NCBI GenBank assembly: GCA_964444125.1
Contig: CAYUFB010000002.1
Span: forward strand, 9,075-73,074
Reading direction: 5' to 3'
DNA length: 64,000 nt
Origin: an uncultured Candidatus Saccharibacteria bacterium
Lineage (GTDB): Bacteria > Patescibacteriota > Dojkabacteria > B142 > JAFGMG01
Shown here: in pieces, positions 5,070 to 52,844 of the stretch
How the letters are laid out: each line of letters opens with the position of its first letter
Position numbering within the stretch: the stretch's first letter is position 1
Notes under the pieces: generated by a model
Database searches by the model: none
What the model was told of the DNA's origin: nothing
What the model saw: only the letters and a program-made list of their open reading frames with translations
Translations under genes and position numbers: made by a program

Positions 5070-5073
5070 GCTT

Positions 5074-6249
5074 TTAACTAATAGAGAAACTTGCAATGTC
5101 CGCATAGTTTTTTTGGTAATAAGCCGCACTTGTAAAAGCATCGTTTACCACAGCTTCGATGATACTTTTGGTCAAAATGTAGGGATTTTTTATTGAATCC
5201 AAGAAGTTTTTAAAACTCTCAATTGTAAAAAAATGATCAGGCTTCATATCCATGAAGTCCAATGAAATGGCAAAGTCATGTAATCTTCCGAGATTCCCAA
5301 TGTCTTTCTGGTCAAACCAGGCATCAAAAGGTGTTTTCATAACTTGTGCAAAATTTCTAGAAATGACGAATAACAAAAATTTTGCATGTTCAATCATGTC
5401 ATTGGTACTTATTTTGTCTGTGGGTTTTTGGAAGTGTCTTATGTATTGTTCTGGGACATTGAATTTATCTTTGAATTTTTCATATTGATTAAATTCGAAT
5501 TCTTCTTTTAGCCAAAGGTAGCTTGATACCATTTGATCGAATGATTCGGGGAGGAGTTTTCCGTCTTCGTCAAAAAAGGCGAAGTATTCACAATCTATTC
5601 TAGTAGGGTCGGTCAATCTTACACTTGCACATACCAAGTCGTCATCAATTAGATGTTTTGCACTCATCACGTTACTTAATATTTCTGCATATCTTTGACC
5701 CAAAACTCCTTGTGAGGAATACATTTGTTTTAAATCTCTAAATGAGATTTTGAGGGTTGCTATAGTTATCCCTATATGAGCTCCCATATCTTCAAGTGTG
5801 TCTCCAATATATGTCTCAAGAAACATTTCATCAAAGAGCGTCAATCCTGGTATGATAGGATTTGGGTCTTTTGTTTTTGCCTTAAAATATTGAGCATCCA
5901 ACAACCATCTAAGCGACAAGCCTTTGGTGAGAAGACACCCTACATGTCCATAACCTGACTTGTCAGATAATATTACAGCTTTGTCCGTCCTTCCAGTTTC
6001 TCGACCTCTACTTAAAATTGTTTTGGGAAGAGAATATAATTGTGTGGTTTCCGGGTTGCCAGCAATAAATAAGTAATCAAGCAGATCTTCTTGAGTTATT
6101 GTATAACCAGGATTGATATTTATTTCAATGGCGGATGTGTCTAGTCCAGCTTGTGTTAACGCATCAACCAAGCCTATTTGATGACATCCCCATGTATTTA
6201 TTGAGGTGTATATACTGTCTGGTGGTTGTATTTCTAAGAGAAAACTCAC
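5074..6249 (-). CDS. Hypothetical protein, 391 aa, no recognisable domain.
   Basis: Long ORF with coding-like composition, divergent from the DegT gene. Confidence 0.5.
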   Translation of the reverse strand: MSFLLEIQPPDSIYTSINTWGCHQIGLVDALTQAGLDTSAIEININPGYTITQEDLLDYLFIAGNPETTQLYSLPKTILSRGRETGRTDKAVILSDKSGYGHVGCLLTKGLSLRWLLDAQYFKAKTKDPNPIIPGLTLFDEMFLETYIGDTLEDMGAHIGITIATLKISFRDLKQMYSSQGVLGQRYAEILSNVMSAKHLIDDDLVCASVRLTDPTRIDCEYFAFFDEDGKLLPESFDQMVSSYLWLKEEFEFNQYEKFKDKFNVPEQYIRHFQKPTDKISTNDMIEHAKFLLFVISRNFAQVMKTPFDAWFDQKDIGNLGRLHDFAISLDFMDMKPDHFFTIESFKNFLDSIKNPYILTKSIIEAVVNDAFTSAAYYQKNYADIASFSIS

Positions 6250-6340
6250 TTAAACCTATTGATATATATATATTATATCTTAAGTGGGCATTACAGTTCA
6301 ATTTGTTTTCTCTTTTATACAATTTAAGCTAAAATCAAGT

Positions 6341-7570
6341 ATGAAAAACTTATTTATAGGCACTTCTCCAAATATTCAAAAAGACGATATCAAACTGATA
6401 TTTGCAAGCCTTTTTAGACCTTGGGCTTGGAGAGAGGAAGAGGCTGTTTATAAGTTTGAAGAAGAGATTGCAAATTATGTATCAGCAGACAGCAATTCCT
6501 TTGCAATCGCATTCGATTCGGCAAGGACATCTTTTTTCAAATTGCTTGAAGCTTGGGATATTGGGAAAGGAGATGAGGTGTTAGTTCCCAGTTTCACTTG
6601 TGTAGTAATTGTCAATTCTGTGTTACAAGCAGGTGCTACTCCAGTTTATATTGACACAGACCCTGATACTTTCAATATTTCCTTAGATGATTTAAGAGCA
6701 AAGATTAGCAATAAGACTAAGGCAGTTTTAGTTCAACATACTTTTGGTGTGTTTATCGATGTTCAAAAAATTAGAGAGCTTGTCGGAGATGATATAAAAA
6801 TCGTCGAAGACCATGCACACTCTTTGCAGAGAGATGTTTGGGACGACAAAACATCTGATGCATTGGTTCTAACATTTGGTATAGAAAAAACTATGACATC
6901 ACTTCGAGGAGGTATGGCGGTTGTGAGAGATGAGGCTTTGTACAAGAGTTTGAAAGACAAGCAAAGAAACCTCAAGGAGTTTAGCTATAGAAGAATATTT
7001 GTTTGGTTAATAAATCCCCTACTCTGGGCGATTATCACGCCTTTATATTTTGTAGGATTAGGAAAATTTACTATTGGGAGGTTATTTTCTCAAGCTGGGC
7101 ATAAACTTGGCCTTATGGGAAATATGGTTGAAGGATGTGAGTATCGAGGATGTTTCCCAAATTGGATGCCAGCTAAGATGCCAGGAGTATTAGCAGAAAT
7201 TGGTCTAAATCAATTAAGAAAATTAGATAAATTCAATGAACACAGAAGGATAATTGGTCAAATTTATGACGAAGCCTTTGGTAACACTTATTCAAAAACT
7301 GCAAAATATACCCCACTTAGATATCCTCTTTTGGTAGACGAGCCAATAAGAGTTCTTGCGAAATTAAGAAAACATCATGTAATTGCTGGCAATTGGTACA
7401 ACAGGATATTATTTACAGATCCGAAATACTTGGCCGTTCTTGGTTTTGATCCAAAAAGTTGCCCGATTACGATCGAAATTACGCCAAAAGTAATTAACTT
7501 GCCAACTTTTATAAAGGTGACAGAAGAAGATGCAAAAAAAATTGTGGAGATAATTAAAAAATTTGACTAA
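6341..7570 (+). CDS. DegT/DnrJ/EryC1/StrS-family PLP-dependent sugar aminotransferase. Start is probably ATG 6341.
   Basis: GDEVLVPSFTCVVIVNSVLQAGATPVYID, HTFGVFIDVQKIRELV, and a HAHSL context. Confidence 0.8.
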   Translation: MKNLFIGTSPNIQKDDIKLIFASLFRPWAWREEEAVYKFEEEIANYVSADSNSFAIAFDSARTSFFKLLEAWDIGKGDEVLVPSFTCVVIVNSVLQAGATPVYIDTDPDTFNISLDDLRAKISNKTKAVLVQHTFGVFIDVQKIRELVGDDIKIVEDHAHSLQRDVWDDKTSDALVLTFGIEKTMTSLRGGMAVVRDEALYKSLKDKQRNLKEFSYRRIFVWLINPLLWAIITPLYFVGLGKFTIGRLFSQAGHKLGLMGNMVEGCEYRGCFPNWMPAKMPGVLAEIGLNQLRKLDKFNEHRRIIGQIYDEAFGNTYSKTAKYTPLRYPLLVDEPIRVLAKLRKHHVIAGNWYNRILFTDPKYLAVLGFDPKSCPITIEITPKVINLPTFIKVTEEDAKKIVEIIKKFD

Positions 7571-7576
7571 TTATTT

Positions 7577-8230
7577 ATGAATACAAATCCAAAAGCTAAA
7601 AGAATATTGTGTTTTGGTGACTCAAATACCTGGGGATATATTCCAGGACAAGCCAAAAGATATGGTCCTGATTTAAGGTGGACTGGGATTTTACAAAAGC
7701 TACTTGGAGAAGAATTTGAGATAATTGAAGAAGGACTAAATGGCAGGACAACAGTTATAGATGATGATCAGAAACCCGGAAGAAACGGCGAAAATTATTT
7801 ACTTCCTTGCCTACTTACACATGATCCAATTGATTATCTAATTTTATTTCTAGGTACGAATGATATGAAGGAAAGGTATAATCAGACGCCTTCGGATATT
7901 GCTTCAAATATTGAAAAGCTTATTAAATTAATTTATTCGACAGCATTCAATCAGGCAAAAAATTCGCCGAATATATTATTAATAAGTCCAACTATTATTG
8001 ATGAAAGTGTAGAAGGTGTGCAAGAAAAATATAAAGGTGCTGAGAGTAAATCAAGATCACTTGGTGTACTTTATGAAGAGATATCAAAGCAATATGATTT
8101 ACAATTCATTGATCTTGCTGAATTTGTCAAACTTAGCAAGGTTGATGGCTATCACTTTGATCGAGAAACGCATCAGCAAATTGCAAAATCATTCTATGAA
8201 AAGATAATGCAGGATTTCCAAACGAACTAA
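7577..8230 (+). CDS. SGNH/GDSL-family hydrolase (esterase or acylhydrolase).
   Basis: GDSNTWG (block I, catalytic Ser) and LGTNDM (block III). Confidence 0.75.
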   Translation: MNTNPKAKRILCFGDSNTWGYIPGQAKRYGPDLRWTGILQKLLGEEFEIIEEGLNGRTTVIDDDQKPGRNGENYLLPCLLTHDPIDYLILFLGTNDMKERYNQTPSDIASNIEKLIKLIYSTAFNQAKNSPNILLISPTIIDESVEGVQEKYKGAESKSRSLGVLYEEISKQYDLQFIDLAEFVKLSKVDGYHFDRETHQQIAKSFYEKIMQDFQTN

Positions 8231-13175: not shown

Positions 13176-14897
13176 TTACATCTTCTCGACAGTTCTGATG
13201 CCCATTAAATCAAGTCCCCTCTGAAGTACGATAGAAACTGCTTCTGTAAGCATGAGCCTAGCGTCCCTGGTATTTTGGTCTTCTGCTTTGATAACTTGGA
13301 GGTTTTTGTAAAAACTATTAAACCTGGTTGAAAGCTGCAAAAGATAGGTGGCGATTATGTTTGGACTATAATCTCGACTGGCATTTTCAACGATTTCAGA
13401 AAATCTTTCCAAAGTTTTGAGTACGTTTATTTCATAATCACTTGTAAGGTATCTTTCTAAATTTACTTCATAGTTGTAGTTTCCAGCTTCTTTGAGAATT
13501 GATTTGGCTCTTGCATAGGTATATTGAACATAAGGTCCAGAATCTCCTTCGAAATTTACACTCTCGTCTAGATCAAATGCAAGATATTTGAAAGGACTGA
13601 TTTTCAAGAAAGAGTATTTCACTGCTCCAACGGCAATCGTTTCTGCAACTTCGTCAATGTTTTCAACTTTGCCCTTCTCTCTTACTATTGGCTTGATCTT
13701 GGCAACAGCTTGATTAAGTACATCATTTCCGAGAATTACTTGGCCTTTTCTTGAAGACATCTTGCCCGATTTCAGACCTACAAATTCGTAAGCATTATGA
13801 TACTGTTTATCCTTGAACTGCTCAGGCCAAAGAAGCTCTTTAACTTTGAAAGTGACCTTGAAAAAGCTAATTTGTTCGACAGCTACATTATGCACATGAA
13901 GATCCACAATGCCATATTCATTGTTTTTTATAACTGCAAGTCCAAGCTCTTTGCCTTCATATGTCGGAAGTCCTTGTGAATTAATGAAAACCCTTGTATC
14001 TAAGCCATATTTTGCACCATCAAATACAATAGCTCCTTGGCTTTTGGTTAAAATCTTTGCTTCAAGCGCTTTTGAAATGGCATCTTGCACAAATGGCAAT
14101 GTCTCTGATTCCATATACTCTCTTTCAAATGTCGTATATACTCTCTCGTATATTTCGTGAAATTTCTCCAAACTCCAGTCTTTTCCAATTCTCCAAAGTT
14201 TATTAATTTCTATGTCTTCTTGAGAATATATTTTTTCATTTATAGCTTTGATTTCAGCTTGAGCATTATCGTCTTCCTCAAAAGCCGTAGCACCTTGGGT
14301 ATAGCATTTCCCAAGAAGTGCTACTTTTTCGTCTGCGCTTTGAGGATATTGGTCTTCAGGAACTTTTATAAACGCCCAAAGACATTTTGCTATATGCATG
14401 CCTACATCTCCTTGATAATTCACACGAATAACTTCTGCTCCTTGGGCCTCAAACAATCTAACTAGAGATTCCCCCAGGATGATATTTCTCAAATGGCCAA
14501 TATGAAAAGATTTGAAAGGGTTGGGATGAGCAAATTCGACCATTATTCTTTGACCTTTGAGTCTCTTATTGTCACCAAAAGACTCCTTGTTTTCTAATAT
14601 CTTCGAGATCACCTTTACAAAGCTAGCATTATTCTGCTTGAAATTGATAAATCCCGGGCCAGCAATATGAGTATCAAGTCCTAAGTTTTGAGTGTCAAGT
14701 TTATTTACAACCATTTTGGCAATATCAGGTGGGGATTTTTTTATCTCTTTTGATAGTTTCATTGCTACATTCGTAGCCCAATCACCGTGGGATTCATTTT
14801 GGGGCCTTTCTAGGTGAATGTCTTTTGGCTCAATAGTAATATCATATATATCTTTGAGGGCTTTTGAAATTGATTTTTGAATTGTCTCTTTCATCAA
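13176..14897 (-). CDS. argS: Arginine--tRNA ligase.
   Basis: N-terminal ArgRS domain, HIGH motif (SFHIGHLRN), and a KMSSRKG (KMSKS-like) motif; 573 aa. Confidence 0.9.
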   Translation of the reverse strand: MMKETIQKSISKALKDIYDITIEPKDIHLERPQNESHGDWATNVAMKLSKEIKKSPPDIAKMVVNKLDTQNLGLDTHIAGPGFINFKQNNASFVKVISKILENKESFGDNKRLKGQRIMVEFAHPNPFKSFHIGHLRNIILGESLVRLFEAQGAEVIRVNYQGDVGMHIAKCLWAFIKVPEDQYPQSADEKVALLGKCYTQGATAFEEDDNAQAEIKAINEKIYSQEDIEINKLWRIGKDWSLEKFHEIYERVYTTFEREYMESETLPFVQDAISKALEAKILTKSQGAIVFDGAKYGLDTRVFINSQGLPTYEGKELGLAVIKNNEYGIVDLHVHNVAVEQISFFKVTFKVKELLWPEQFKDKQYHNAYEFVGLKSGKMSSRKGQVILGNDVLNQAVAKIKPIVREKGKVENIDEVAETIAVGAVKYSFLKISPFKYLAFDLDESVNFEGDSGPYVQYTYARAKSILKEAGNYNYEVNLERYLTSDYEINVLKTLERFSEIVENASRDYSPNIIATYLLQLSTRFNSFYKNLQVIKAEDQNTRDARLMLTEAVSIVLQRGLDLMGIRTVEKM

Positions 14898-14966
14898 AAG
14901 TTATTAATACGTTAAGATTGAAACTTAACCGTATCTTACAAAAAAAATGCCAAAAACGCCAGTAAA

Positions 14967-16646
14967 TTAAGCTATTTTGATATTTTCTATTGCTACTTTG
15001 ACAAACTCCACAAAAAGAGGATGAGCAGATAACGGTGTTGATTTGTACTCAGGATGTCCTTGAGTTGCGACAAAAAATGGATGAATTTTTTTTGGCAATT
15101 CGATAAATTCAACAAACATTCCATCGGGGGATTTCCCAGAAAAAATCATACCAGCTTTCTCAAGTTGCCCTTGATAATCATTATTGAACTCAAATCTATG
15201 TCTGTGTCTTTCCTCAACTATCCCCTTTTTCTTGTCTGCAAAAGCTTTGTGTTTATCATAGATACTATAGACATAGGAATCTTTATTTAAGACGCAAGGG
15301 TATGTTCCTAGTCGCATTGAGCAGCCATCGCCCTTAATTACTTGATATTTCGGATCAAAAGGAATTGAGTGAATAATTTTGTTTTTGGATTTTGGGTTGT
15401 TCTCTTCTGTATCAGCGTCTTTGATCCCAACAACGTTTCTGGCAAATTCAACTGTCGCAAGTTGCATACCATAGCATAGACCAAGATAAGGAATCTTATT
15501 TTCCCTTGCGTATTTGATAGCTTTTAGTTTGCCTGAGACTCCTCTTGAACCCCAACCAATTGGGACAATTATCCCATCAACATCAGATAGTAGAGAACTA
15601 ATATTTTTTTCTTGCTTGTCAGAATTGATGTATTTCAACTCTATCTTGGAATCATTTGCGATAGCACCGTGCTTAATGGCTTCGATTAATGCATAATATG
15701 CATCAGTTAAGCTTGAGTCTCCTGTCCCAAAGTATTTTCCGACAATTGCAATATTTACCTTTTTCTTTTTGGGTTTAAGCCTTTTTGCAACAAACTTCTC
15801 CCAGGAGGAAAGTTTGATTTCTTTAAATTTTAATTTGAAGTTGGTCAAAAGCTGTTTATCAAGTCCTTGTTTTTGAAGATGTAGTGGAACCAAGTGGATG
15901 TCCGGCAAGTTTTCATTGGAGAAAACGTTTTTTGGGTCAATGTGAAATTTCATTGCGAACTTGTACTTGCGTTGAGTGTCAATCGGAAGCTCACTTCTAA
16001 CAACGAGGTAGTCAATATTTATGCCCATGCTCATTAGTTCTCTGATACCCAATTGGGCTGGTTTCGTTTTAGGTTCACCAATATGAGCTGGTACTGGTAC
16101 GTATGTGACATGAACGTGCGCAACGGGCTGAGTCAATCCCAGGATTCTTGCCGCTTCATAATACAACCCGTTATTATTTTCGTACTCCCCTACTGTGCCG
16201 CCAAGTTCAACTACCACAAAATCAGCATTGGTCTTTTTGGCGGCACTTCTGAACCTCTCTAGTATTTCGTTTACAATGTGTGGGATTGGTTCGACGTCTT
16301 CTCCGTCATATTCCATTCTTCTTTCTTTGTTGATGACAGTTTGGTATAACTGTCCCATCGTCATGAAATTGTCGTGCCCGACTTTTTGATCCAAAAATCT
16401 TTCGTAATTCCCTAAATCTTGGTCTCCTTCTAGACCATCAAAACACAAAAACGGATCTCCGTGCTCAATAGGATTAATAGTTCCAAAATCAACATTTAAA
16501 TTATTTTCACATTTAATTGGACATACATTATAGCCATGTTTCTTAAGAAGCATTGAGATTGAAGCTGCTGTAACCCCTTTGCCAAGTGCACTTATTACTC
16601 CACCGGACACAAAAATATATTTCACCTGCTTATTTGCTTTAGGCAT
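14967..16646 (-). CDS. pyrG: CTP synthase.
   Basis: KYIFVSGGVISALGKG N-terminus and the glutamine amidotransferase motif GLCYGMQLA; 559 aa. Confidence 0.95.
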   Translation of the reverse strand: MPKANKQVKYIFVSGGVISALGKGVTAASISMLLKKHGYNVCPIKCENNLNVDFGTINPIEHGDPFLCFDGLEGDQDLGNYERFLDQKVGHDNFMTMGQLYQTVINKERRMEYDGEDVEPIPHIVNEILERFRSAAKKTNADFVVVELGGTVGEYENNNGLYYEAARILGLTQPVAHVHVTYVPVPAHIGEPKTKPAQLGIRELMSMGINIDYLVVRSELPIDTQRKYKFAMKFHIDPKNVFSNENLPDIHLVPLHLQKQGLDKQLLTNFKLKFKEIKLSSWEKFVAKRLKPKKKKVNIAIVGKYFGTGDSSLTDAYYALIEAIKHGAIANDSKIELKYINSDKQEKNISSLLSDVDGIIVPIGWGSRGVSGKLKAIKYARENKIPYLGLCYGMQLATVEFARNVVGIKDADTEENNPKSKNKIIHSIPFDPKYQVIKGDGCSMRLGTYPCVLNKDSYVYSIYDKHKAFADKKKGIVEERHRHRFEFNNDYQGQLEKAGMIFSGKSPDGMFVEFIELPKKIHPFFVATQGHPEYKSTPLSAHPLFVEFVKVAIENIKIA

Positions 16647-30958: not shown

Positions 30959-31618
30959 TTACCTCACTTCCACTAAATCCCACCAAAGAATTAGGCGTTC
31001 TTTGAGGCCATTATTACATGTCTGCATAGTAAGTGTTGGGGTATCAGATTGGCTTGTATAAACACTTGTTTCGCTTGGTTCAACAATTTTTGAAGTTCTA
31101 AACGAATATGTGTAAGTTATTCCGTTGTAATAAATATAGGCAATATCCCCTGGTTTGATCTTATCAAGATTTGCAAAGAAGCCGTTTTGTTTGCCATCAT
31201 AGTTTGACCTGTGTGCAAACAAATACACATTACCGTCTTTTGTTGCCTCATCAGGAAGAAGTGTGAACTTACCATGTGCAATATATTGATCTAGGACAGG
31301 TATATATTCTTCTTTGTATCTTGGGTCCGTATTTGCCCAGATATCGTGTTTGAGATTAATTGAGGGGATTTCTAGAGCGAAATTCGCATAAGTTTCTTCA
31401 GTCAGATTAGTTTCATTATTGGCAGTCGTTTCTGCAAGAACAGGCACTGAAAGGCTATCATTAAGTAAAAAACTATTATTTGCTGTTTTAGATTCTTCAG
31501 TGTGTTCTTCATCAACAGTACTTTCTACTTGTTGATTAATACCAGTAACTAAATTTAGCAAAATATTGCCAAATAATACTATTAGTATTAAATTTGAAAG
31601 AATAATTAATTTTCGCAT
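30959..31618 (-). CDS. Sortase-family transpeptidase with an N-terminal TM anchor.
   Basis: Catalytic signatures LFAHRS (His), LTMQTCNNG (TLxTC Cys) and a following Arg (KERL). Confidence 0.8.
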   Translation of the reverse strand: MRKLIILSNLILIVLFGNILLNLVTGINQQVESTVDEEHTEESKTANNSFLLNDSLSVPVLAETTANNETNLTEETYANFALEIPSINLKHDIWANTDPRYKEEYIPVLDQYIAHGKFTLLPDEATKDGNVYLFAHRSNYDGKQNGFFANLDKIKPGDIAYIYYNGITYTYSFRTSKIVEPSETSVYTSQSDTPTLTMQTCNNGLKERLILWWDLVEVR

Positions 31619-38761: not shown

Positions 38762-39424
38762 TTATCTAATAAGTTTTTTCATTTTTTCCTTCCAAAGAGT
38801 GATTTTCTCATGATTGCCTGATAGAAGTACCTCAGGAACTTTCAATTCTTTTCCGTTCAAGTTGTATACGGCTGGTTTGGTATATATAGGATATTGGATG
38901 GTGGAGTCATCATCATAAAACGAATCGGTCTTGGGGGTTGATTCATTGCCTACAACATTGGGGATCAGCCTCGAGACACTGTCTACAACAACCATTGCTG
39001 GTATTTCGCCTCCAGTTAGGACATAATTTCCTATTGATATTTGCATATCGCAAACTTCGTCTAATATCCTTTGATCGAAGCCTTCGTAGTGTCCTGCAAG
39101 TATGATGACGTGATCAAAGTCTTTTGCAATTCTTTTGGCTGTTGATTGCTTGTAGGTTTCACCTTTGGCAGTCATCGCTATTACTAATGAGTTTTCTTTT
39201 TTCAGTTCATCAACTGCTTTGGCCACAGGTTCAATCATAATAATCATTCCTCCTCCGCCACCATATGGAGTATCGTCAACTTGTTTATATCTGCTTTTTG
39301 ACCAGTTTCGTAAGTCGTGAATGTTGATTTTTATTATTCCTTTCTCTTGTGCTCTTTTAAGAATGCTTTCTGAAAATGGTCCTTCAAACATTTTTGGAAA
39401 AAGCGTGAGTATATCTATTTGCAT
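38762..39424 (-). CDS. trmD: tRNA (guanine37-N1)-methyltransferase.
   Basis: MQIDILTLFPKMFEG, TPYGGGGGM and GHYEGFDQR motifs. Confidence 0.92.
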   Translation of the reverse strand: MQIDILTLFPKMFEGPFSESILKRAQEKGIIKINIHDLRNWSKSRYKQVDDTPYGGGGGMIIMIEPVAKAVDELKKENSLVIAMTAKGETYKQSTAKRIAKDFDHVIILAGHYEGFDQRILDEVCDMQISIGNYVLTGGEIPAMVVVDSVSRLIPNVVGNESTPKTDSFYDDDSTIQYPIYTKPAVYNLNGKELKVPEVLLSGNHEKITLWKEKMKKLIR

Positions 39425-39509
39425 TGTTGATTATTAATTTAATTGATTATACAGTATTTAAATACTATTGGTTTGGTTATTTCTATTATGAAAATGATAT
39501 AATATTTTT

Positions 39510-39773
39510 ATGGAAAAAGAACTAAAAAAATTAATGAAAGCAAATAAAACATTGTTTTGGGATATATCAGAAGAGGCTCTAAATGGGCTTTCTCAAAATG
39601 CTGTGGTAACAAGGATTGTTGAATATGGAGATATGGGCTCTTTCAAGAAATTAGTTGACCTAAATGCAGATTTATTGAAGGATCTTGCAAATTCCCAAAT
39701 GCATAAAGGTAGAGTGAACTTGTCCAAAAGAATCATAAATTTTATAAACACATATTTTGAGTACAATTCATAA
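39510..39773 (+). CDS. Small hypothetical protein; putative partner or antitoxin of the downstream nucleotidyltransferase.
   Basis: 87-aa ORF overlapping the next gene by 17 nt. Confidence 0.4.
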   Translation: MEKELKKLMKANKTLFWDISEEALNGLSQNAVVTRIVEYGDMGSFKKLVDLNADLLKDLANSQMHKGRVNLSKRIINFINTYFEYNS

Positions 39774-40368
39774 GCAAGTTTTAAATGATAAACAACTTGA
39801 GCTACTTCCTCTACTACATAAGTTTTATAAATTTTATTTAGCAGGAGGTACTGCTTTGGCTCTCCAAATTGGGCATAGGAAATCTATTGATTTTGATTTG
39901 TTTTCAAAAGAAGAAATAGACAAAAATGCAATATTAAAAGTACTTGACCAACGAAAGGTTAATCAGATTATTGTTGATAGTATTGACGAATTCACGTTTG
40001 TTTACGATGGGGTAAAATTGACATTTTTAAATTTTCCGTTCCGGATAGAGGAGTTTGTTGATTTAGAATTTGTAAAAGCTGTTGATTTTCTTACGATTGC
40101 TGCTATGAAAGCATATGCCCTGGGTAGACGTGCTAAGTGGAAAGATTATGTTGATATTTATTTTATTATTCAAAAGGAATCCATTAATTCTATTATTCAC
40201 AAAGCAGAGGAACTTTTTGGAAATTTATTCTCAGAGAAGCTTTTTCGTTCTCAGCTTTGTTATTTTGAGGACATTGATTATTCAGAGAAGGTTGACTTCG
40301 TAGCAGATCACGAAGTTAACGATGAACAGGTCAAGGAAACATTGAAGCGGATTGCTGTGACTTTCTAA
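39757..40368 (+). CDS. Nucleotidyltransferase-fold protein of the AbiEii/AbiGii toxin type.
   Basis: YLAGGTALALQIGHRKSIDFDLF matches the GGTAL...hR.S.DhD signature of AbiEii-family nucleotidyltransferases. Confidence 0.5.
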   Translation: MSTIHKQVLNDKQLELLPLLHKFYKFYLAGGTALALQIGHRKSIDFDLFSKEEIDKNAILKVLDQRKVNQIIVDSIDEFTFVYDGVKLTFLNFPFRIEEFVDLEFVKAVDFLTIAAMKAYALGRRAKWKDYVDIYFIIQKESINSIIHKAEELFGNLFSEKLFRSQLCYFEDIDYSEKVDFVADHEVNDEQVKETLKRIAVTF

Positions 40369-40373
40369 ATTTT

Positions 40374-41420
40374 TTAGTTAGACTTTCCTTTTAGCTTCCT
40401 TTTCCAATTTTCAAACTTCTCATAATAATGAGTGAAGTTGTATTTGAAGCTTACCGGTATGTCTCTAGCATGGATCCACTTTTCTGCACGTCCTCCAAAT
40501 CCCACCTTAAATAGTCCAAGTCCAGCCCATGGGTCTTCCATGTCAAGTTCGTTTTTTTCATTTAATGGTAGTCCCCAGAAATTGTGTTTCTCTAAACCAC
40601 GTTTCTTTGCTTCTTTAATTGCTTCCCACTGCATCAGATAGCTGGCAGGGATTTTTTGATACTCGCTTAAACTTCCTGAGTGATGATAAACACTTTGATT
40701 ATTGTAGAAATTAAATATGGCAGAAGCTATGTATTTGCCTTCATATTTTGCAAGAAATAGAACATTTTGATCGTCTTCTAAAAAAGCTTCAAATTCATGC
40801 TTTATATAATCAAATGAATATGCTGTCCATTTGTGCCTTTGTACAGTATCTTGGAATATCTCCCAAAAAATTTCCAGTTTGCCTAGATCTTTCGTTTGTT
40901 CAATAGTCACACCCATTTTTGTCGCTTTGCGAATTAAGTATCTGGTGTTTTTGCGCATACTTTGCAGTAGGCTTTCCTCTGTGTCGTTTAGATCAAGAAC
41001 CCATGTTTCTTCCGCATCAATCCCATGCATTTGGGATTTTTTTGTTTCGGTTTCTAATATTTTTGAATTTTCGATTAATGGGCTGATTCTTACAAACCAT
41101 GCACCTTCATTTTTTGCCACTTGTTTTAGCTCGCCTATTACAAACTCTACCAATCTAGTATCCTGCCAGTTTATAACTGGGCCATGTCTAAAATGGAGAT
41201 ACTTGCCTCTTCTTGCTTCAACCTTCGTTCCAAGTGCAACCCCAATTAAATTGTCGTTCTCATAAATACCTAAGCGAAAAATTTTTTGTTTTTGGCTTAT
41301 TAGAAAATTTCCCCAATTCCATGATTGAATAAATGAGGTAGGGGAGGTCGTTTTTCCTGCATTGTTTGTTATAAATTCTTCCCAATTCTTTTTGTCTTCA
41401 ATTTCTTTAATTAAATACAT
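40374..41420 (-). CDS. FemAB-family peptidoglycan cross-bridge aminoacyltransferase, second copy.
   Basis: MRKNTRYLIRKATKMGVTIE plus the overall FemX architecture; 348 aa. Confidence 0.75.
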   Translation of the reverse strand: MYLIKEIEDKKNWEEFITNNAGKTTSPTSFIQSWNWGNFLISQKQKIFRLGIYENDNLIGVALGTKVEARRGKYLHFRHGPVINWQDTRLVEFVIGELKQVAKNEGAWFVRISPLIENSKILETETKKSQMHGIDAEETWVLDLNDTEESLLQSMRKNTRYLIRKATKMGVTIEQTKDLGKLEIFWEIFQDTVQRHKWTAYSFDYIKHEFEAFLEDDQNVLFLAKYEGKYIASAIFNFYNNQSVYHHSGSLSEYQKIPASYLMQWEAIKEAKKRGLEKHNFWGLPLNEKNELDMEDPWAGLGLFKVGFGGRAEKWIHARDIPVSFKYNFTHYYEKFENWKRKLKGKSN

Positions 41421-41423
41421 TTA

Positions 41424-43223
41424 TTAATTTGTGATAATTAGTTTAATTAATTGTGGAGAAAATCGACCTTCAATTAGTATATTGTCACCTTCTTTAACTA
41501 TGTTGTTTAGGAGTTTAACAATATCTAATTCTTGAGTTATGTGATATGTTTCAAAGTCCGCACTAGTATTTTTTATCTCTTCTATTAGTTCGATATCTGT
41601 AGAAATCAACACATCCGAATCTTTGATGATATTTTGCGCAAGTTCTTTGTAGGCTGTTTTTTTGAAACTACCAAGTTCAATTATACCTTTTGTGATAACA
41701 AGTCTCTTTCCTTTGGTTTTGCTAAGAAGTTTTAGTGCTGATTTGAAGCCTTCTGGGTTTGTGTTATAACTATCGTCTAATACATCGGATTTGTTTATTC
41801 CGATTTTCCAAGTTAAGTGTAATTTCTCAAAATTGATTGTCTTGAGTTTGTTTGCGATCTCTTTTGTATCCATGCCCAGTTCGATTGCGACTCCAACAGC
41901 TGCTAGGGCATTTGAGATGTTGTGTCTGATTGATGTTTTGACTTCGGTTGGGTATTCAACATCTTTGTAGCGAATAACAAAGCTAAAGCCATCATCCTTT
42001 GGCGTTATGTTTTTTGCATAAAGCATGCCTTTTGCTGGATCAGGAAACTCAGTTTTTGACTCAGGTTCAAATGAATGCGCTATTTCAGTTTCCTCGTCGA
42101 TAGTATAGTACATCAATTTGCGTTTTGTAGTTTTGGTTGCCATCTGTAGACAATGTTGGTTGTTTGCATTAAATATCGCCAATCCTTCTTGTTTTAAGTT
42201 CTCAACTATTTCGTTTTTTGCCTTGACCAGATTTGACATGGATCCAAAAAGAGAGAGATGTTGAGGAGTGATACCAGTTACAATTGATATGTCCGGAACC
42301 AACAAATTTGTTGATTGAGCAATTTCACCTTTCTTGTATGCACCCATTTCTGCAATAAATACCTCGGTCTCTGCTTTCAGATTTCGAATAATTGACTCTG
42401 CTACACCGACTGTGGAGTTAAAGTTCTCGTCGGTTTTGGCTGTTTTGAAGCTATCCTTGATAAGTTCGTATACAATTTCTTTTGTGCTTGATTTGCCATA
42501 GCTCCCAGTGATAGCAATCACCTTAAATCCTTTGTGTGCAGTTACTTTTGCTTTTGCACTTTTGATAGTTTTTTTCCTTTTGTATTGCGCAAGAGGTTCG
42601 GTCATCACTGCCCAAAATGCAACTGGAAAAGGGGAGGCTAGATCCATACCCAAGACCAAAATATTTGTGAGCATAAGGATGGCAATTGCTAGTGGGATTC
42701 TTTGAATATCATAGTCGTCATCAGTTTGGATCAAAATATCATCGAATCCAACAATTTGGTAGTCTAGTTTTTCTTCAACTTTCTCGATCTCTGGTCTTTG
42801 ATATATTTCATAAATTGTTTTGATTGGTATGAAAAGAGGCAACACCAGAGTTATAAATGCAAGTAGGGTAATCAATAGATTTCTGATGCTTTTTTTGGGG
42901 CGAACTAGTTTGCTGGAAAGAATATCTTGTAATCTATCAAGGCCTTCGAAAATGTAGGTCGCAAATGTAAGGACAGGAATGATCAATAAATAGTTTGACG
43001 GGACAAAAAAGAATGCCAGAGAAAAGCTAAAGAGAATTAGTTGAACAAAGTTAATTAGTACTGATCTATAGCTTTTGGCCTCGTGATATTTGAGGTATGA
43101 CACAATCCGATCTACTCTATATTCCTTGATCTGCCAAATATAGGTGTCATGGAAGATATTTCTAATGACAACCAGTATTGCCGGCAAGGAAAAAAATATT
43201 ACTAGTAGTATAAGTCCAGTCAT
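41424..43223 (-). CDS. murF: MurF-like Mur ligase (UDP-MurNAc-tripeptide--D-Ala-D-Ala ligase family). The usual N-terminal domain is replaced by a polytopic membrane domain of about 210 aa.
   Basis: P-loop VIAITGSYGKSSTKE and the C-terminal LDDSYNTNPEGFKSAL signature (MurF DDSYNANP). There are at least 6 hydrophobic helices in residues 1-210. Confidence 0.75.
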   Translation of the reverse strand: MTGLILLVIFFSLPAILVVIRNIFHDTYIWQIKEYRVDRIVSYLKYHEAKSYRSVLINFVQLILFSFSLAFFFVPSNYLLIIPVLTFATYIFEGLDRLQDILSSKLVRPKKSIRNLLITLLAFITLVLPLFIPIKTIYEIYQRPEIEKVEEKLDYQIVGFDDILIQTDDDYDIQRIPLAIAILMLTNILVLGMDLASPFPVAFWAVMTEPLAQYKRKKTIKSAKAKVTAHKGFKVIAITGSYGKSSTKEIVYELIKDSFKTAKTDENFNSTVGVAESIIRNLKAETEVFIAEMGAYKKGEIAQSTNLLVPDISIVTGITPQHLSLFGSMSNLVKAKNEIVENLKQEGLAIFNANNQHCLQMATKTTKRKLMYYTIDEETEIAHSFEPESKTEFPDPAKGMLYAKNITPKDDGFSFVIRYKDVEYPTEVKTSIRHNISNALAAVGVAIELGMDTKEIANKLKTINFEKLHLTWKIGINKSDVLDDSYNTNPEGFKSALKLLSKTKGKRLVITKGIIELGSFKKTAYKELAQNIIKDSDVLISTDIELIEEIKNTSADFETYHITQELDIVKLLNNIVKEGDNILIEGRFSPQLIKLIITN

Positions 43224-43389
43224 TATTTTTTATAAAATTATATGCTAAGTATAGCAGTAAGTAATTTGTTCGACTAGACAGATTTATTAGTAACATTATC
43301 TTTTTATTTTGCTGCTTGTCGTTAGCGTATGGTAATTAGTTTTGCTCTGTGCTAGTATTCATGTATTATTTAATTATTAAATTAGTGTT

Positions 43390-43698
43390 ATGGTAGAAGT
43401 AGTAGCGGCTGAAAAAGTCGAAGCAAAAGTAGTAAATGAAAGTTCCAATGGGACAGCGGATTTGATGGCACTTGGTTCTCTTATTCTAGGTATAATCAAT
43501 CTTTGTTCATGGTGTATTCCTTTCTGTGGATGCCCAATGTCAATAATTGGACTAGTATTAGGATTTCTTGGATTGAAGTCAAAAAAGAATGCAATGTTTG
43601 CAAAGGTTGGTATCGTATTGTCAGGTTTGGGACTTCTAGCATCAATAGTAAATGGAATTGCTGGAGTTGTACTAAATACATCAACTTTTTCATTCTAA
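43390..43698 (+). CDS. Small two-TM membrane protein.
   Basis: 102 aa with two hydrophobic helices around a KSKKNAMFAK loop. Confidence 0.5.
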   Translation: MVEVVAAEKVEAKVVNESSNGTADLMALGSLILGIINLCSWCIPFCGCPMSIIGLVLGFLGLKSKKNAMFAKVGIVLSGLGLLASIVNGIAGVVLNTSTFSF

Positions 43699-43726
43699 AA
43701 TTTGATAATTAAATCAACTTAAATAA

Positions 43727-43758
43727 AGCAGCCCAGGAAACTCGGTTGCTTTTTTTTA
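43727..43758 (+). terminator. Rho-independent terminator: AGCAGCC stem, loop, GGTTGCT, followed by T8.
   Basis: 7-bp stem with one G-U pair plus a T-run, immediately after the 43390-43698 gene. Confidence 0.55.
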
Positions 43759-43777
43759 TATATAATTTGTTAATCAT

Positions 43778-44344
43778 ATGATGGACCCAGATAAGCCAGT
43801 TAGAATAGATGAACATTCCAGAAATATTTGGAGTCCGGAAAAAACGACTCCACAAGACTTTGTTAATTCTTTTATTGGTGCCTTGAATGCTAGACAGGAG
43901 CATATATTCTACAAGAACTATCCGCAAAATGAGCAGGTTGGATTGGTAGATGCACAGATATTATCGAAAATAATTAATCAGTATGTCTTGCTTCGGTATC
44001 CAGATGTGTCTTTTAATGAAGTGGAAAGGGAAGATATTGGGGAAATAGTCCAAGAGGCTAATCGACTTCTCCCGATGGAATTTAATGACTGGGTCGATGG
44101 TTGTTTGATGCCTTTTGGGAACAAGAGATCTAGAGGAAAGAAATATTTTGCAAATATAGTTTCAGGTTGTATGGTTGATGGATCGCATGAACCTTTTTCT
44201 GATGAAGACAAAGCCCTAGCATTAAGATCATGGCTTATTGAAGTAGATAGATTTGTAGAAGATCATATTGGTGAGTTTGATAAACAGATGAGGATATTTA
44301 ATCAACAAACTCCTTTATTAGTTGCGCAATCTTTTTTGGATTAG
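43778..44344 (+). CDS. Hypothetical protein.
   Basis: 188-aa ORF with no recognised domain. Confidence 0.5.
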   Translation: MMDPDKPVRIDEHSRNIWSPEKTTPQDFVNSFIGALNARQEHIFYKNYPQNEQVGLVDAQILSKIINQYVLLRYPDVSFNEVEREDIGEIVQEANRLLPMEFNDWVDGCLMPFGNKRSRGKKYFANIVSGCMVDGSHEPFSDEDKALALRSWLIEVDRFVEDHIGEFDKQMRIFNQQTPLLVAQSFLD

Positions 44345-45038
44345 TCAAAGGGATGCCATGGCTTCCTTCGATAATTTCTAATTTTGAGTTTAGAATTAGT
44401 TTATGTAGTTTCTGACCCATGGCAAGTGGGGTTACTTTATCATCTTTGCCCCAGATTATAAGTGTTGGAATTTGGATTCTTTTGAAATTTTCTTCCAAAT
44501 CTTCGTTTGTAACTCTTCTGAACTGTTCTTGAGTCTTGGAAGAATCTACATAATCTCTTTCTCTAATTATATAGTAATAAATGAATTTTCGAAGTTTTGA
44601 TTCAAGATTTGTAGGTAAAACGGACAAAATGAACTTGAAAATTTTTGAAAAAGGTAATAATGTTTTTGCTTTTAGAGTTTTGTATCTTAACCCAGAAGAA
44701 GAGCAGAGTATAATCTTCTCTACACTAATTTCATCGTTACTTGCAATAAATCCAACCAAGCTACCACCAAAGGAATGGCCAAATAATATGAATTCTTTTT
44801 CTTTCACATACTCTTTGATGAAGTCTTCTACAAATTCTGCATAATCTTTGACGCCCCAGTAACTAGGTGGAGCAGGGGATACTCCAAATCCTGGTAATTC
44901 TAGGTTGTATACTTTGAATCTAAGCTTGGCTAACTCGTTTTGGAGTGCGCTCAAGCTTTTTATGCTGGCATTCTTGGCCCACCCATGAATGAGAATTATC
45001 GCTTTGCCAGTTCCTTTTATTGTGTAGTTTGTCTGCAT
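44298..45038 (-). CDS. Alpha/beta-fold hydrolase.
   Basis: IILIHGW (oxyanion) and GHSFGG (nucleophile elbow GxSxG). Confidence 0.75.
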   Translation of the reverse strand: MQTNYTIKGTGKAIILIHGWAKNASIKSLSALQNELAKLRFKVYNLELPGFGVSPAPPSYWGVKDYAEFVEDFIKEYVKEKEFILFGHSFGGSLVGFIASNDEISVEKIILCSSSGLRYKTLKAKTLLPFSKIFKFILSVLPTNLESKLRKFIYYYIIRERDYVDSSKTQEQFRRVTNEDLEENFKRIQIPTLIIWGKDDKVTPLAMGQKLHKLILNSKLEIIEGSHGIPLTNPKKIAQLIKEFVD

Positions 45039-45079
45039 AGTGCCTTAAGTATACAGTTTGTACAAACGCATGTACAAGA

Positions 45080-45137
45080 AATTGTGTGCATTTGATAGGT
45101 GCACACAATTGACAAAATGTACAAAATACCTTATCAT
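45080..45137 (+). promoter_or_regulatory. rpsO promoter region. An 11-bp perfect palindrome AATTGTGTGCA-N9-TGCACACAATT (45080-45110) overlaps the -35 TTGACA (45109-45114). The -10 TATCAT lies at 45132-45137.
   Basis: Read directly from the sequence. There is a 17-nt spacer between the -35 and -10, and TGTACAA recurs three times nearby. Confidence 0.5.
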
Positions 45138-45213
45138 TATTTTGACTTTTACTTTGGTAGGTATGCAGCCAGCATCTTACTGAGGTTTTAGATTAATTGT
45201 TACAAAAAATATT

Positions 45214-45486
45214 ATGGCAGTAGATAACACAAAGAAAGCTGAGATAATCAAGAAATATCAGCAATCAGATAGTGATACAGGATCCCCTCAAGTTCAGATT
45301 GCTTTATTGACACAAAAAATCAATGATTTGGCTAGTCACTTGAAGACTCACAAAAAAGATAAGCATTCTAGAAGAGGTTTGATTGTCATGGTTGGAAAAA
45401 GAAGAAAATTAATCAAGTATCTTGAGAGAAAAGAAGGATCAGTTGTCGTTTCTAAGCTTCTTAGAGATTTGGGATTAGAAAAATAA
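45214..45486 (+). CDS. rpsO: 30S ribosomal protein S15.
   Basis: 90 aa; [25 protein letters not shown] is a typical S15 sequence. Confidence 0.95.
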
Positions 45487-46721: not shown

Positions 46722-47663
46722 TTGAGTATGAAAAAATATTTGTGTTTATTGTTGATATTGATAGTGGTTGGGTTCGGATCATTTGCAAATATGGTTTTGG
46801 CACAGGAGGCGTCTGATATAATACGGCTAACTTGTACTGAAATCTATGGGAAAAACTTAGAAAGACTTGAATGTAGCGATGATTCAATCTGTAATAGTGA
46901 AAAAAGTTACTACTTGGATAATCATGATGGCAAGTGCGAGATCGCTGCTGGTGATTGTAGGCCAGGCTAACTTGTATGTAAAAATGCTGAATCTATACAA
47001 GGTTTTTTCGAATATTGTTGTGATACAAATCCATCATCTCTGTTTGATCCTAATAACACGAATATTCCTATTGAGGATAGGGTATCTTGTAATGATGATA
47101 AATTGAAAAAGTCAATTAGTGCTGAAAGTAGTCTTGATCAGGGGATGAAGGTAAATAATTGTAGGTCATTGTCTAGTGCAGAAGATGTAAACAATATTAC
47201 GAAATGCGATTTTGAACATTTTTGCTCAATTGATAATTCTCCATATTGTTGTGATTATACCCCACCAGGCACGCAAGTAGTAGATTCAGTCTCAGAAGAC
47301 TCATTTAAGTGGTGTAAGGATATGGATGGAGAAGAATTGCAGAGATGTTCGGAATGTATAGGAACAAGATCAAATCCAACAGGGGCGATATGGACGGAGC
47401 TTGGATGTATTGACCCATCTCCAGCAGGGATCATAACGAGGATATTCTAGATAGGTATAGGAATTATGGGAGGAGTGATAATAATCAGGTTGATACAGAT
47501 TTCGTTGTTATACTTGAAAGAAGATGCGCAGAGTATAGAGGAGGCAAGAGATATGCTAACAAGTTTGATAATGGGATTAATATTATTGGTAGGAGGAGTA
47601 GTGTTATTACAATTTGTGGGAGTAAATATCCTAGGACTTCCTGAGGGTTATCTTGGAGGTTAA
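46722..47663 (+). pseudogene. Decayed paralog of the hairpin-protein family. One reading frame is broken by an in-frame TAA (46968-46970) and an in-frame TAG (47448-47450).
   Basis: Signal peptide, Cys-rich ectodomain, the conserved NPTGAIWTELGCIDPSPAGIITRIF segment and the two-TM hairpin are all in one frame. TAG 47448 corresponds to CAG in the intact paralog at 59148. Confidence 0.6.
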
Positions 47664-51517: not shown

Positions 51518-51982
51518 ATGTTAAATCTAGTTGTATTAGAACAATTAATCAAATTTAGTATCCCTGATAAATCATTGCAGGATAGGTATATCAAGGGGAT
51601 CTCTGCTGCAATTCAGGATCTTTTTTTCAATTTGTTGAGTATCTTTCTAATTGGGTCTGTCAAAGACAGATTAGCGCTAGAGGGGTTTATTGACCTAGTC
51701 AATAAGTTAGAAGAAGATTTTGATCCAACAGATATGGAAAGAACCAGAGATTGGTTAGAAACAAATATAGATCTAGATACGGATGCTTTTATGGATGAAT
51801 ATATAAGTAGGGTAGATAAAATGCAGCTAGACCTTATCAAAATCTTCTCAAAGAATATAACAGAAGAGCAAAAAATAGAATTAATTAATATAATTGATAA
51901 ACAATTAATAGAATTAGAAAAGAACAGAGAAGAAGTTGATACGATGAAAGAAGCCCTAGAGGTTTTAAGATTTAATCAATAG
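51518..51982 (+). CDS. Hypothetical acidic protein.
   Basis: 154-aa ORF, co-directional with ftsZ. Confidence 0.45.
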   Translation: MLNLVVLEQLIKFSIPDKSLQDRYIKGISAAIQDLFFNLLSIFLIGSVKDRLALEGFIDLVNKLEEDFDPTDMERTRDWLETNIDLDTDAFMDEYISRVDKMQLDLIKIFSKNITEEQKIELINIIDKQLIELEKNREEVDTMKEALEVLRFNQ

Positions 51983-52844
51983 GTCTTGCAATAGCTACAA
52001 ATCTTTTTGCATTATTCCCATTTGGGTAACAGGTAAAAAGGGTCAGTGTAGATTTGTTCTTTTGTCCTGTGATGATTGATACATCTTCTGGCTTGACGAT
52101 TTTGGTTTGCACAACTCTGTATTTATGGGTTTGGCCTTCGATTTCTATGCTTACCTCATCTCCAATCTTGATTTCACTTAGTTTCGAGAAGGCGGCCGTG
52201 ATATCTTTGGTCCTAGAATAATAATCTCCTCCAGCACTGTGTCCATATATAACAATATTATTATTAATATCGGAAATAGGAAGGCTCGTACCTTTGAAGT
52301 GGGCTAGAGCACCTTTTAGGGCTTCTTGATATGCGCTTTCAACTCCACTTTCCACATTTGGTTTTACGGGTAGGGAGTTTAATTCCAATGAAGGGATTGA
52401 AATTTTGAAATTGTTTTTGTATTCAAGGCTGACAGGGTCATTTTGCAATACATGTTGAGATAGGGCGTCTTTGGTCAATTCCTTAAAATATTCAGATCCC
52501 GGGTTTGAAAGATATGTCTCTTTGGGTCGTATTGAATCTCCTTTGACAAGTTCCGGTCTACCACTTTCATAATAACCAGAAATCTCTCTTGCTCTCTGTT
52601 TCATTTCAGGAAAGATCTGCCTGGAAAGGATTATGCTGCCTGCAATGATAAACAATGAAGGGATCAAAATCCTTGCAAGCGTTGAAGTTTTTATCAAGTT
52701 ATTGAAATCATTTCGAATACCCACAAGCAGATCCCATAATGTCGTTGGTGGGATTTCTTCTTTTTCGATTTCAATTTCTCTACTATAAATCTCTCCGGGG
52801 TCACGAAATTTCACAGCTCTTTTTTTGTAACTCTTTAGAGGCAT
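51972..52844 (-). CDS. Sortase-family transpeptidase, second copy, with a TM anchor.
   Basis: IVIYGHSAGG (His), TLTLFTCYP (TLxTC Cys) and a downstream Arg. Confidence 0.8.
   Translation of the reverse strand: MPLKSYKKRAVKFRDPGEIYSREIEIEKEEIPPTTLWDLLVGIRNDFNNLIKTSTLARILIPSLFIIAGSIILSRQIFPEMKQRAREISGYYESGRPELVKGDSIRPKETYLSNPGSEYFKELTKDALSQHVLQNDPVSLEYKNNFKISIPSLELNSLPVKPNVESGVESAYQEALKGALAHFKGTSLPISDINNNIVIYGHSAGGDYYSRTKDITAAFSKLSEIKIGDEVSIEIEGQTHKYRVVQTKIVKPEDVSIITGQKNKSTLTLFTCYPNGNNAKRFVAIARPID

Follow-up and report, generated by a model that had tools for sequence, protein, structure and literature searches.

A family of MurF-type ligases with an integral membrane domain, present in Patescibacteria and three other phyla

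Introduction

Mur ligases are textbook soluble cytoplasmic enzymes and antibiotic targets. What, then, does a Mur ligase do whose chain begins with a set of membrane helices, and is its substrate carried by uridine diphosphate (UDP) or by a membrane lipid? The question is raised by a 64,000-nucleotide stretch of contig CAYUFB010000002.1 (hereafter the window), which derives from an uncultured bacterium of the Dojkabacteria. Here, a membrane-anchored MurF-type ligase ('TM-MurF'; 41424-43223, minus strand), an open reading frame (ORF) of 599 residues characterized by Pfam, NCBIfam, PDB and Foldseek searches and by an AlphaFold2 model, is directly followed by a FemX-type FemAB transferase (40374-41420, minus strand, 348 residues, Pfam FemAB). 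The initial annotation had located both genes correctly, to which we add that they lie on the minus strand, and had proposed that the peptide stem is completed or modified on lipid-linked precursors at the membrane. From sequence and gene order we conclude that the ligase is the positional and the closest sequence equivalent of MurF. As an explanation of the whole locus we lean, with modest conviction, towards a membrane-anchored MurF whose active site faces the cytoplasm.

Catalytic domains of the MurF type

The catalytic part of the ligase, comprising the central ATP-binding and C-terminal domains, spans residues 230-599 (41427-42536, minus strand), where Pfam recognizes Mur_ligase_M (PF08245; residues 238-446, 3.7e-34, 118.9 bits) and Mur_ligase_C (PF02875; residues 477-587, 9.1e-09, 36.7 bits). 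The MurF hallmarks quoted in the initial annotation are present as described, namely the P-loop ITGSYGKSSTKE at residues 238-249 (42477-42512, minus strand), which includes GSYGKSS at 240-246 and conforms to the GxxGK[ST] pattern of the Mur central domain, and LDDSYNTNP at residues 482-490 (41754-41780, minus strand), which conforms to the MurF-type DDxYNANP. A lysine in the motif KAKNE (42210-42224, minus strand) aligns with K202 of E. coli MurF, and G240, S241, K244, K248, T264, N269, E292, G294, H322, E338 and N352 are invariant in the alignment.

Profile, sequence and structure searches agree on the nearest relative. Among NCBIfam models, the murF model TIGR01143 ranks first with 207.8 bits over residues 225-586, as compared with 70-76 bits for murD, murC and cyanophycin synthetase (70 for the last) and 55 for murE, and the PgsB/CapB models give no match to the ligase at E <= 0.01. 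The first seven hits of a PDB sequence search are all MurF, the best being that of E. coli (PDB identifier 1GG4, 2.7e-28), and Foldseek searches with the full model likewise place MurF first (PDB identifier 4QF5, 1.3e-23), with MurF structures ranging from 1e-23 to 2e-20 and other Mur ligases at about 1e-16. When the catalytic parts are compared by neighbour joining, the membrane ligases, E. coli MurF and a group of soluble MurF-like ligases that we call MurF2 (see below) form one clade in 100% of 60 bootstraps, while MurC, MurD and MurE fall outside this super-clade; the membrane ligases make up a clade of their own, also with 100% bootstrap. The membrane form scores 105-150 bits against E. 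coli MurF and MurF2 45-67 bits. An identity as CapB or cyanophycin synthetase is rejected by the NCBIfam scores and by the placement with MurF in the tree, and the sequence comparisons support a ligase of the MurF type; clustering with CapB had been part of an outcome that, for the initial annotation, would overturn its proposal.

The similarity to MurF stops short of its N-terminal domain. The alignment to TIGR01143 covers profile positions 66-405, beginning only at position 66, so that the protein has no canonical N-domain; in the PDB sequence search, the match to E. coli MurF starts at residue 100 of the latter, and the structural alignment to MurF spans only ~390 columns, which correspond to the two catalytic domains. 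Thus, the central and C-terminal domains match those of canonical MurF (E. coli 1GG4, A. baumannii 4QF5, P. aeruginosa 4CVM), with which they share the P-loop, the Mg-binding Glu and His, a lysine aligned with the carbamylated Lys and the DDSYNxNP motif, whereas domain 1 (~80 residues, binding UDP) is replaced by a 229-residue five-helix domain with invariant motifs of its own. Further departures from canonical MurF are a C-domain loop of the form T.G..ELG in place of GDMxELG, a score under the family cut-off and a conserved alpha/beta-hydrolase partner.

A five-helix membrane domain with invariant motifs

The membrane domain occupies residues 1-229 (42537-43223, minus strand), and Pfam finds nothing on residues 1-230. 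Hydropathy peaks lie at ~2-20, 55-74, 77-93, 114-134 and 175-206. The AlphaFold2 model, built with 103 homologues, is confident over the whole chain (mean predicted local distance difference test score 91.9, predicted template-modelling score 0.86) and has long helices at 2-32, 55-73, 77-102, 113-141 and 178-195, followed by a short one (198-207) and by a basic linker helix (209-229) that runs into the first strand of the ligase. Membrane-spanning segments can be placed at ~2-22, 55-73, 77-97, 113-135 and 178-195, with the short helix 198-207 being interfacial. The hydrophobic segments of the initial annotation are therefore membrane helices by both hydropathy and the model, but they number five plus one short interfacial helix rather than at least six, and the domain that stands in for the UDP-binding N-domain measures ~229 and not ~210 residues; the replacement itself is borne out by the start of the TIGR01143 alignment, the AlphaFold2 model and the Foldseek matches.

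Over the 103 homologues, the net charges of the loops are +1.7 for residues 23-54, +3.8 for 98-113 and +5.5 for 208-232, as against -2.2 for the acidic outer loop 136-177. These charges indicate a topology in which the N-terminus is outside and the ligase inside, and by charge bias and structural model the catalytic domains most likely lie in the cytoplasm. Two conserved motifs map to the predicted cytoplasmic side. The invariant motif WQIKEYRVDR (residues 30-39; 43107-43136, minus strand) follows directly after helix 1, and its residues W30, Q31, K33, E34, Y35, R36, D38 and R39 show either no variation or a conservation of at least 90% in both alignments (A1 and A2), the family form in the candidate phyla radiation (CPR, that is, Patescibacteria) being WQ[ILV]KEYRxDR. 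The second motif, VRPKKSIRN or RPK (residues 107-115; 42879-42905, minus strand), contains P109, which is invariant across the 103 sequences. In the members from Poribacteria, Nitrospirota and Tissierellia, the counterparts read LQL[DE]GY[KR] and KKPLV[FY]T.RAKR, respectively, and the motifs are aligned with a probability of 81% (E 1.2e-05, 177 columns) when the CPR and non-CPR N-domains are compared profile to profile. On these sequence comparisons the two sets of membrane domains are homologous, and the invariant motifs on the cytoplasmic side suggest that the domain is more than a mere anchor.

The domain appears to be confined to this architecture. A HMMER scan with the membrane domain alone against 1.84 billion representative proteins gave 97 matches, about three-quarters of which are 500-625 residues long and fused to the ligase, while the remainder are fragment-like (61-444 residues); no other partner domain was found among the 97. 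Neither a Pfam family nor a solved fold matched the domain, and it has no fold likeness to any solved protein that binds polyprenyl-phosphate or a lipid carrier.

A large family in four phyla

The top homologues of the ligase come from Candidatus Dojkabacteria (WS6), a lineage within Patescibacteria. The layout of membrane domain plus ligase is common to all 120 of the 120 best database homologues, and the window protein, a single ORF without internal stop, recurs identically on 7 independent metagenome contigs of up to ~98 kb; the design is therefore not a gene-fusion artefact. In a scan of one genome per GTDB species, at least 590 relatives were confirmed among the 600 stretches listed. Within Patescibacteria these belong to Dojka-, Levy-, Gottesman-, Staskawicz-, Nealson-, Wildermuth-, Magasanik- and Peribacteria and to Paceibacterota, and outside it to Poribacteria, Nitrospirota and Clostridia of the class Tissierellia. 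Cultured carriers include Tissierella, Tepidimicrobium, Anaerosalibacter, Caloranaerobacter and Caldisalinibacter, in which the protein bears the NCBI name MurF. Judged by its sequences, the membrane-ligase design is an old and widespread family in four phyla. A literature search (membrane or transmembrane MurF, peptidoglycan genes of the CPR, FemAB of Patescibacteria) found no description of the architecture, and this membrane-integral MurF subfamily, which is large, is undescribed as far as that search showed.

One database protein, P0088 (738 residues, from a single 3.4-kb contig), appears as a fusion of hydrolase and membrane MurF and was excluded from the topology analysis. Its hydrolase part is without the catalytic His region and its first membrane helix is truncated, so that it is probably a frameshift or deletion artefact.

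Conserved neighbours and gene order

Gene order was surveyed at 83 loci from other organisms, with counts taken over 76 assessable loci for the hydrolase and over 70 loci for DegT and FemAB. In 65 of the 76, the ligase is preceded by an alpha/beta-hydrolase homologue at a distance of less than 400 bp. Over 71 neighbouring copies from four phyla, its Ser89, Asp200 and His227 are 100% conserved, and the residues of the HGW, PGFG and DY motifs 93-100% conserved, showing at the sequence level that the family is nearly always preceded by a hydrolase with an intact catalytic triad. NCBIfam and PDB searches gave no specific function for it, the best NCBIfam model being the EstV lipase (119 bits, cut-off 300) and the PDB matches generic esterases. 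In the window, the hydrolase (44298-45038, minus strand, Pfam Abhydrolase_1 3.5e-24) is two small genes away from the ligase.

Downstream of the ligase, a DegT-type aminotransferase follows directly in 47 of 70 loci and a FemAB gene occurs within 7 kb in 52, adjoining the ligase directly, as it does in the window, in six. The window has its own DegT/DnrJ/EryC1-type pyridoxal-phosphate aminotransferase (6284-7570, plus strand, Pfam 1e-49) ~34 kb from the ligase, which scores 130-248 bits with 53 out of 54 DegT ORFs located after the ligase at the surveyed loci (the 54th is a 102-residue fragment, 37 bits) and is 30% identical over the full length to the copies in loci L013, L088 and L005. The cassette of the window is thus partly dispersed, with the hydrolase two genes off and DegT in the region of a second FemAB paralogue.

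The order of genes in other lineages places the membrane ligase where a murF would be expected. Poribacteria and Nitrospirota have the order murE, hydrolase, membrane murF, ddl, mraY, murD, ftsW, murG, murC, in which murE and murD score well over the curated cut-offs and no other murF was found within the wall-gene cluster. A Tissierellia locus has hydrolase, membrane murF and ddl, and in many loci of Microgenomates a cassette of hydrolase, membrane murF, DegT and FemAB directly precedes mraY, ftsW and murG. The relatives in these four groups thus hold the place of a murF in the wall-gene order or adjoin ddl; the ligase of the window does not, since no other mur gene or ddl lies in the ~84 kb made up of the window and its flanks. 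Bacillus has a separate ddl-murF operon, which the order at the Tissierellia locus resembles. Outside the CPR, ddl comes after the membrane murF, and inside it DegT and FemAB do, suggesting that these have taken the slot of ddl.

The FemX-like transferase

The spacing from the ligase stop to the FemAB ATG in the window is 3 nt (TAA-TAA-ATG), and the two genes therefore form one transcription and translation unit, as the initial annotation had supposed; the pairing is conserved in Patescibacteria. The downstream gene belongs to the FemAB family (PF02388, 1.1e-43, 150.1 bits against a cut-off of 24). Its best PDB sequence matches are FmhB (PDB identifier 6snr, 1.3e-12) and FemA (1lrz), followed by Weissella FemX (4e-06). 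With 348 residues it belongs to the short type, which has no FemA-like coiled-coil arm, and falls in the same size class as Weissella viridescens FemX and S. aureus FmhB (FemX), but its similarity to these is weak (61.1 bits to the FemX equivalog NF047883, whose cut-off is 500). In a neighbour-joining tree of FemAB proteins, the ligase-adjacent gene falls in the main clade, together with the FemAB that follows DegT in other Patescibacteria. The second FemX-like gene of the initial annotation is real (3164-4291, plus strand, ATG at 3164, a 375-residue gene call, Pfam FemAB 2e-33) and groups with a paralogue located between hydrolase and ligase in some Parcubacteria.

Weissella FemX acts on UDP-MurNAc-pentapeptide (MurNAc, N-acetylmuramic acid), which is the direct product of MurF. 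Ligase and FemX would thus carry out two consecutive steps, which would explain the operon without lipid-linked chemistry.

Soluble ligases without domain 1

Soluble MurF-like ligases without domain 1, the MurF2 group, are widespread in Patescibacteria, including close Dojkabacteria relatives of the window. They are ~440-460 residues long and have two insertions; the P-loop sits close to residue 42, the C-domain loop reads GDMRELG and the tail carries CRRGxYW. Against the ligase part of the window protein they score 29-44 bits. They belong to the same MurF super-clade as the membrane ligases, likewise lack domain 1 and are often encoded just after the cassette, but have no membrane domain and keep GDMRELG. 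In the closest GTDB relative (L013), MurF2 (450 residues, 14811-16163) lies ~0.8 kb downstream of the cassette FemAB, after a peptidase S51 gene; further copies are found in L088 (10001-11386), L094 (10001-11371), L098 (10001-11335) and L090 (10001-11365). MurF2 lies upstream of murE in the division and cell wall (dcw) clusters of L098, L046 and L090 and by ddl in L101, and elsewhere it lies by peptidase S51 or PGA_cap genes or, mostly, alone. No MurF2, and no Mur ligase other than the membrane ligase, was found in the window and the 10 kb beyond each end (~84 kb in total), nor was any other mur gene or a ddl.

The membrane MurF of L013 (9944-11679) is split at the P-loop into ORFs of 231 and 327 residues and is either a pseudogene or a sequencing error; the MurF2 at the same locus is intact.

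MurF2 is not the only soluble Mur ligase of Patescibacteria to lack domain 1. Patescibacterial MurE proteins have 385-418 residues and align to murE models from about position 89, and hence are without the UDP-binding N-terminal domain (L005 689-1873, with equivalents in L029, L034, L045-L047, L069, L079, L081 and L098), whereas Poribacteria have a full-length MurE (504 residues) in a cluster of this kind. Locus L122 (1666-2844) encodes a short, canonical-like MurF of 392 residues with GEMKELG and LDDTYNSSP, also without domain 1, directly before mraY in a CPR-type dcw cluster. This third MurF design holds the slot that the membrane cassette has in other lineages. Since the soluble MurE, MurF2 and short MurF are likewise without domain 1, its loss does not imply a lipid substrate.

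Proposed function and its alternatives

The classical murE-murF-mraY or murF-ddl context of the membrane ligase outside the CPR makes an anchored but otherwise ordinary MurF step the simplest reading. The ligase would add a D-Ala-D-Ala-type dipeptide to the MurNAc-tripeptide precursor at the expense of ATP, working on the inner membrane face and probably with UDP-MurNAc-tripeptide still as its substrate. The role of domain 1 would fall to the membrane domain's cytoplasmic loops, which would also set the product beside MraY, and the FemX-like enzyme would then attach a branch amino acid from an aminoacyl-tRNA to the completed stem peptide.

Several observations weigh against this proposal. The 207.8 bits of the window protein fall under the curated TIGR01143 cut-off of 288.6 (poribacterial and Tissierellia relatives reach 254 and 248 bits, respectively), and the canonical MurF loop GDMxELG reads TKGIIELG in the ligase (IIELG at 41670-41684, minus strand) and TPGMVELG in the non-CPR members, so that only E516, L517 and G518 of the loop are conserved. 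Relatives in the CPR also carry a soluble MurF2 with an intact GDMRELG loop, which follows the cassette in L013, L088 and L094, is the only MurF-like gene in the dcw cluster of L098 and adjoins ddl in L101; MurF2 and cassette co-occur also in L046. The D-Ala-D-Ala step in the CPR could accordingly belong to, or be shared with, MurF2. Moreover, ddl was not found in the vicinity of the membrane MurF at any of ~75 CPR loci, nor in the window and its flanks, and the literature search found no biochemical data for any member of the family. We had considered that, for want of ddl, two MurF-like enzymes might each add a single residue, an idea that was dropped because Ddl/Van-type ligases are reported from surveys of CPR genomes (PMC8651080).

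The lipid-linked chemistry of the initial annotation would have the ligase act after MraY on undecaprenyl-pyrophosphoryl-MurNAc-tripeptide, that is, on lipid I or II without the dipeptide, with the membrane domain binding the lipid carrier in place of UDP and its basic motifs holding the pyrophosphate. The exchange of the UDP-binding domain for an integral membrane domain and the invariant Lys and Arg at the predicted cytoplasmic membrane surface speak in its favour, and there are precedents for work on lipid II in S. aureus FmhB and in the isoglutaminyl synthase MurT/GatD, of which MurT has a Mur-ligase fold without domain 1 and acts at the membrane on a lipid-linked precursor. MurT is, however, a soluble protein with a DUF1727 C-domain and a glutaminase partner, unlike the membrane ligase, to which it is a weak match (E 2e-05 in the PDB sequence search, ~1e-16 with Foldseek). 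The loss of domain 1 is equally seen in soluble MurE, MurF2 and short MurF of Patescibacteria; in Poribacteria and Nitrospirota the gene stands upstream of mraY in classical order, beside full-length MurE, MurD and MurC; the Trp, Tyr, Gln, Glu and Asp of the conserved motif would suit the binding of a nucleotide as well as that of a pyrophosphate; and the membrane domain resembles none of the known polyprenyl-phosphate-binding folds. We therefore regard action on a lipid-linked substrate as rather unlikely, and unlikelier by a shade the more specific proposal that the five-helix domain binds undecaprenyl-pyrophosphate, that D-Ala-D-Ala or another unit is added to lipid-linked MurNAc-tripeptide after MraY and that the hydrolase acts on the same lipid intermediate.

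A division of labour in the CPR, wherein MurF2 or the short MurF adds D-Ala-D-Ala and the membrane ligase, in concert with hydrolase, DegT-like aminotransferase and FemX-like enzyme, adds or builds another residue or branch on the precursor, is an unlikely explanation too, if one to be taken seriously. DegT and FemAB stand in the CPR where other phyla have ddl after the membrane murF, and the canonical loop of MurF2, its presence alongside the cassette at four loci and its place in the dcw cluster of L098 and next to ddl in L101 all fit such a scheme. Yet the membrane form is clearly nearer to E. coli MurF than MurF2 is, its non-CPR relatives are housekeeping MurF by context, and in many Microgenomates the cassette comes immediately before mraY; the contexts of MurF2, by contrast, are varied and, with peptidase S51 and PGA_cap among the neighbours, unlike those of core wall synthesis, and the ~84 kb around the ligase hold no MurF2. 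Scarcely credible is an artefact of annotation or assembly with fused genes, or else a poly-gamma-glutamate ligase akin to CapB/PgsB or a cyanophycin-type ligase. PgsB/CapB, as part of the poly-gamma-glutamate synthase PgsBCA, is likewise a membrane-associated ligase of the Mur family, and one MurF2 homologue adjoins a PGA_cap gene. The ORF is nonetheless uninterrupted, its layout is shared by more than 100 homologues and found on 7 contigs, and the whole-chain model is confident. PgsB/CapB has no specific similarity to the ligase, lies in another clade and has a different membrane partner system, and both the scores (cyanophycin synthetase 70 bits against 208 for murF) and the tree, which groups the ligase with MurF, have already refuted this alternative.

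Other genes of the locus

The window is of low GC content (~35%), begins at dnaA and dnaN and further encodes ftsK, trmD, ftsQ, ftsA, ftsZ, two sortases and type IV secretion pilins. Both sortases listed in the initial annotation hold up, one being confirmed at 51972-52844 and the other carried by the precomputed Pfam Sortase match of a gene call at 30959-31618, and the Gram-positive-type wall deduced from them and from the second FemX-like gene accords with the published view of CPR envelopes as having a monoderm-type wall with sortases (PMC6744442). A scan for promoters and terminators over 39400-45300 gave counts no better than those in shuffled sequence and was left unused.

Hydrolase and ligase are separated in the window by two small plus-strand genes, encoding a DUF4190-like membrane protein (43390-43698) and a 188-residue protein without family (43778-44344), the latter of which shares 47 nt with the hydrolase gene at its 3' end. 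On the other side, between the FemX-like gene and trmD, sits a gene of the AbiEii toxin family (39757-40368, plus strand, PF08843 3.6e-13), which is preceded by a small ORF of 87 residues (39510-39773, plus strand). It occupies the position that MurF2 and peptidase S51 have in the Dojkabacteria relatives L013 and L088, and relative to these it looks like a replacement or an insertion.

The five genes that immediately follow dnaA and dnaN (3164-8230) encode the second FemAB paralogue and DegT, together with a metallophosphoesterase (4260-5069), a 391-residue protein without family (5074-6249, minus strand) and a GDSL hydrolase (7577-8230), and may form a second wall-modification module. The interval between ftsQ and ftsA (46722-47663, plus strand) holds several small ORFs, including two cysteine-rich ones of 82 and 115 residues and a hydrophobic one of 65 residues, for which a JGI contig has matching gene calls of 80, 101 and 65 residues.

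Implications

Membrane-integral MurF enzymes that form a large family and are devoid of the UDP-binding domain would be new to the field. The family is tied to a serine hydrolase and, in the CPR, to an aminotransferase and a FemX-like enzyme. Since cultured Tissierellia (Tissierella, Tepidimicrobium, Anaerosalibacter) carry the same enzyme, the question of its substrate is open to direct laboratory testing. It bears on the coupling between the cytoplasmic stage of wall synthesis and the stage at the membrane, on the nature of the wall precursor in the CPR and on the question whether MurF substrates may have a carrier other than UDP. If the lipid-linked reading were true, the textbook order of peptidoglycan precursor synthesis would be changed in four phyla.

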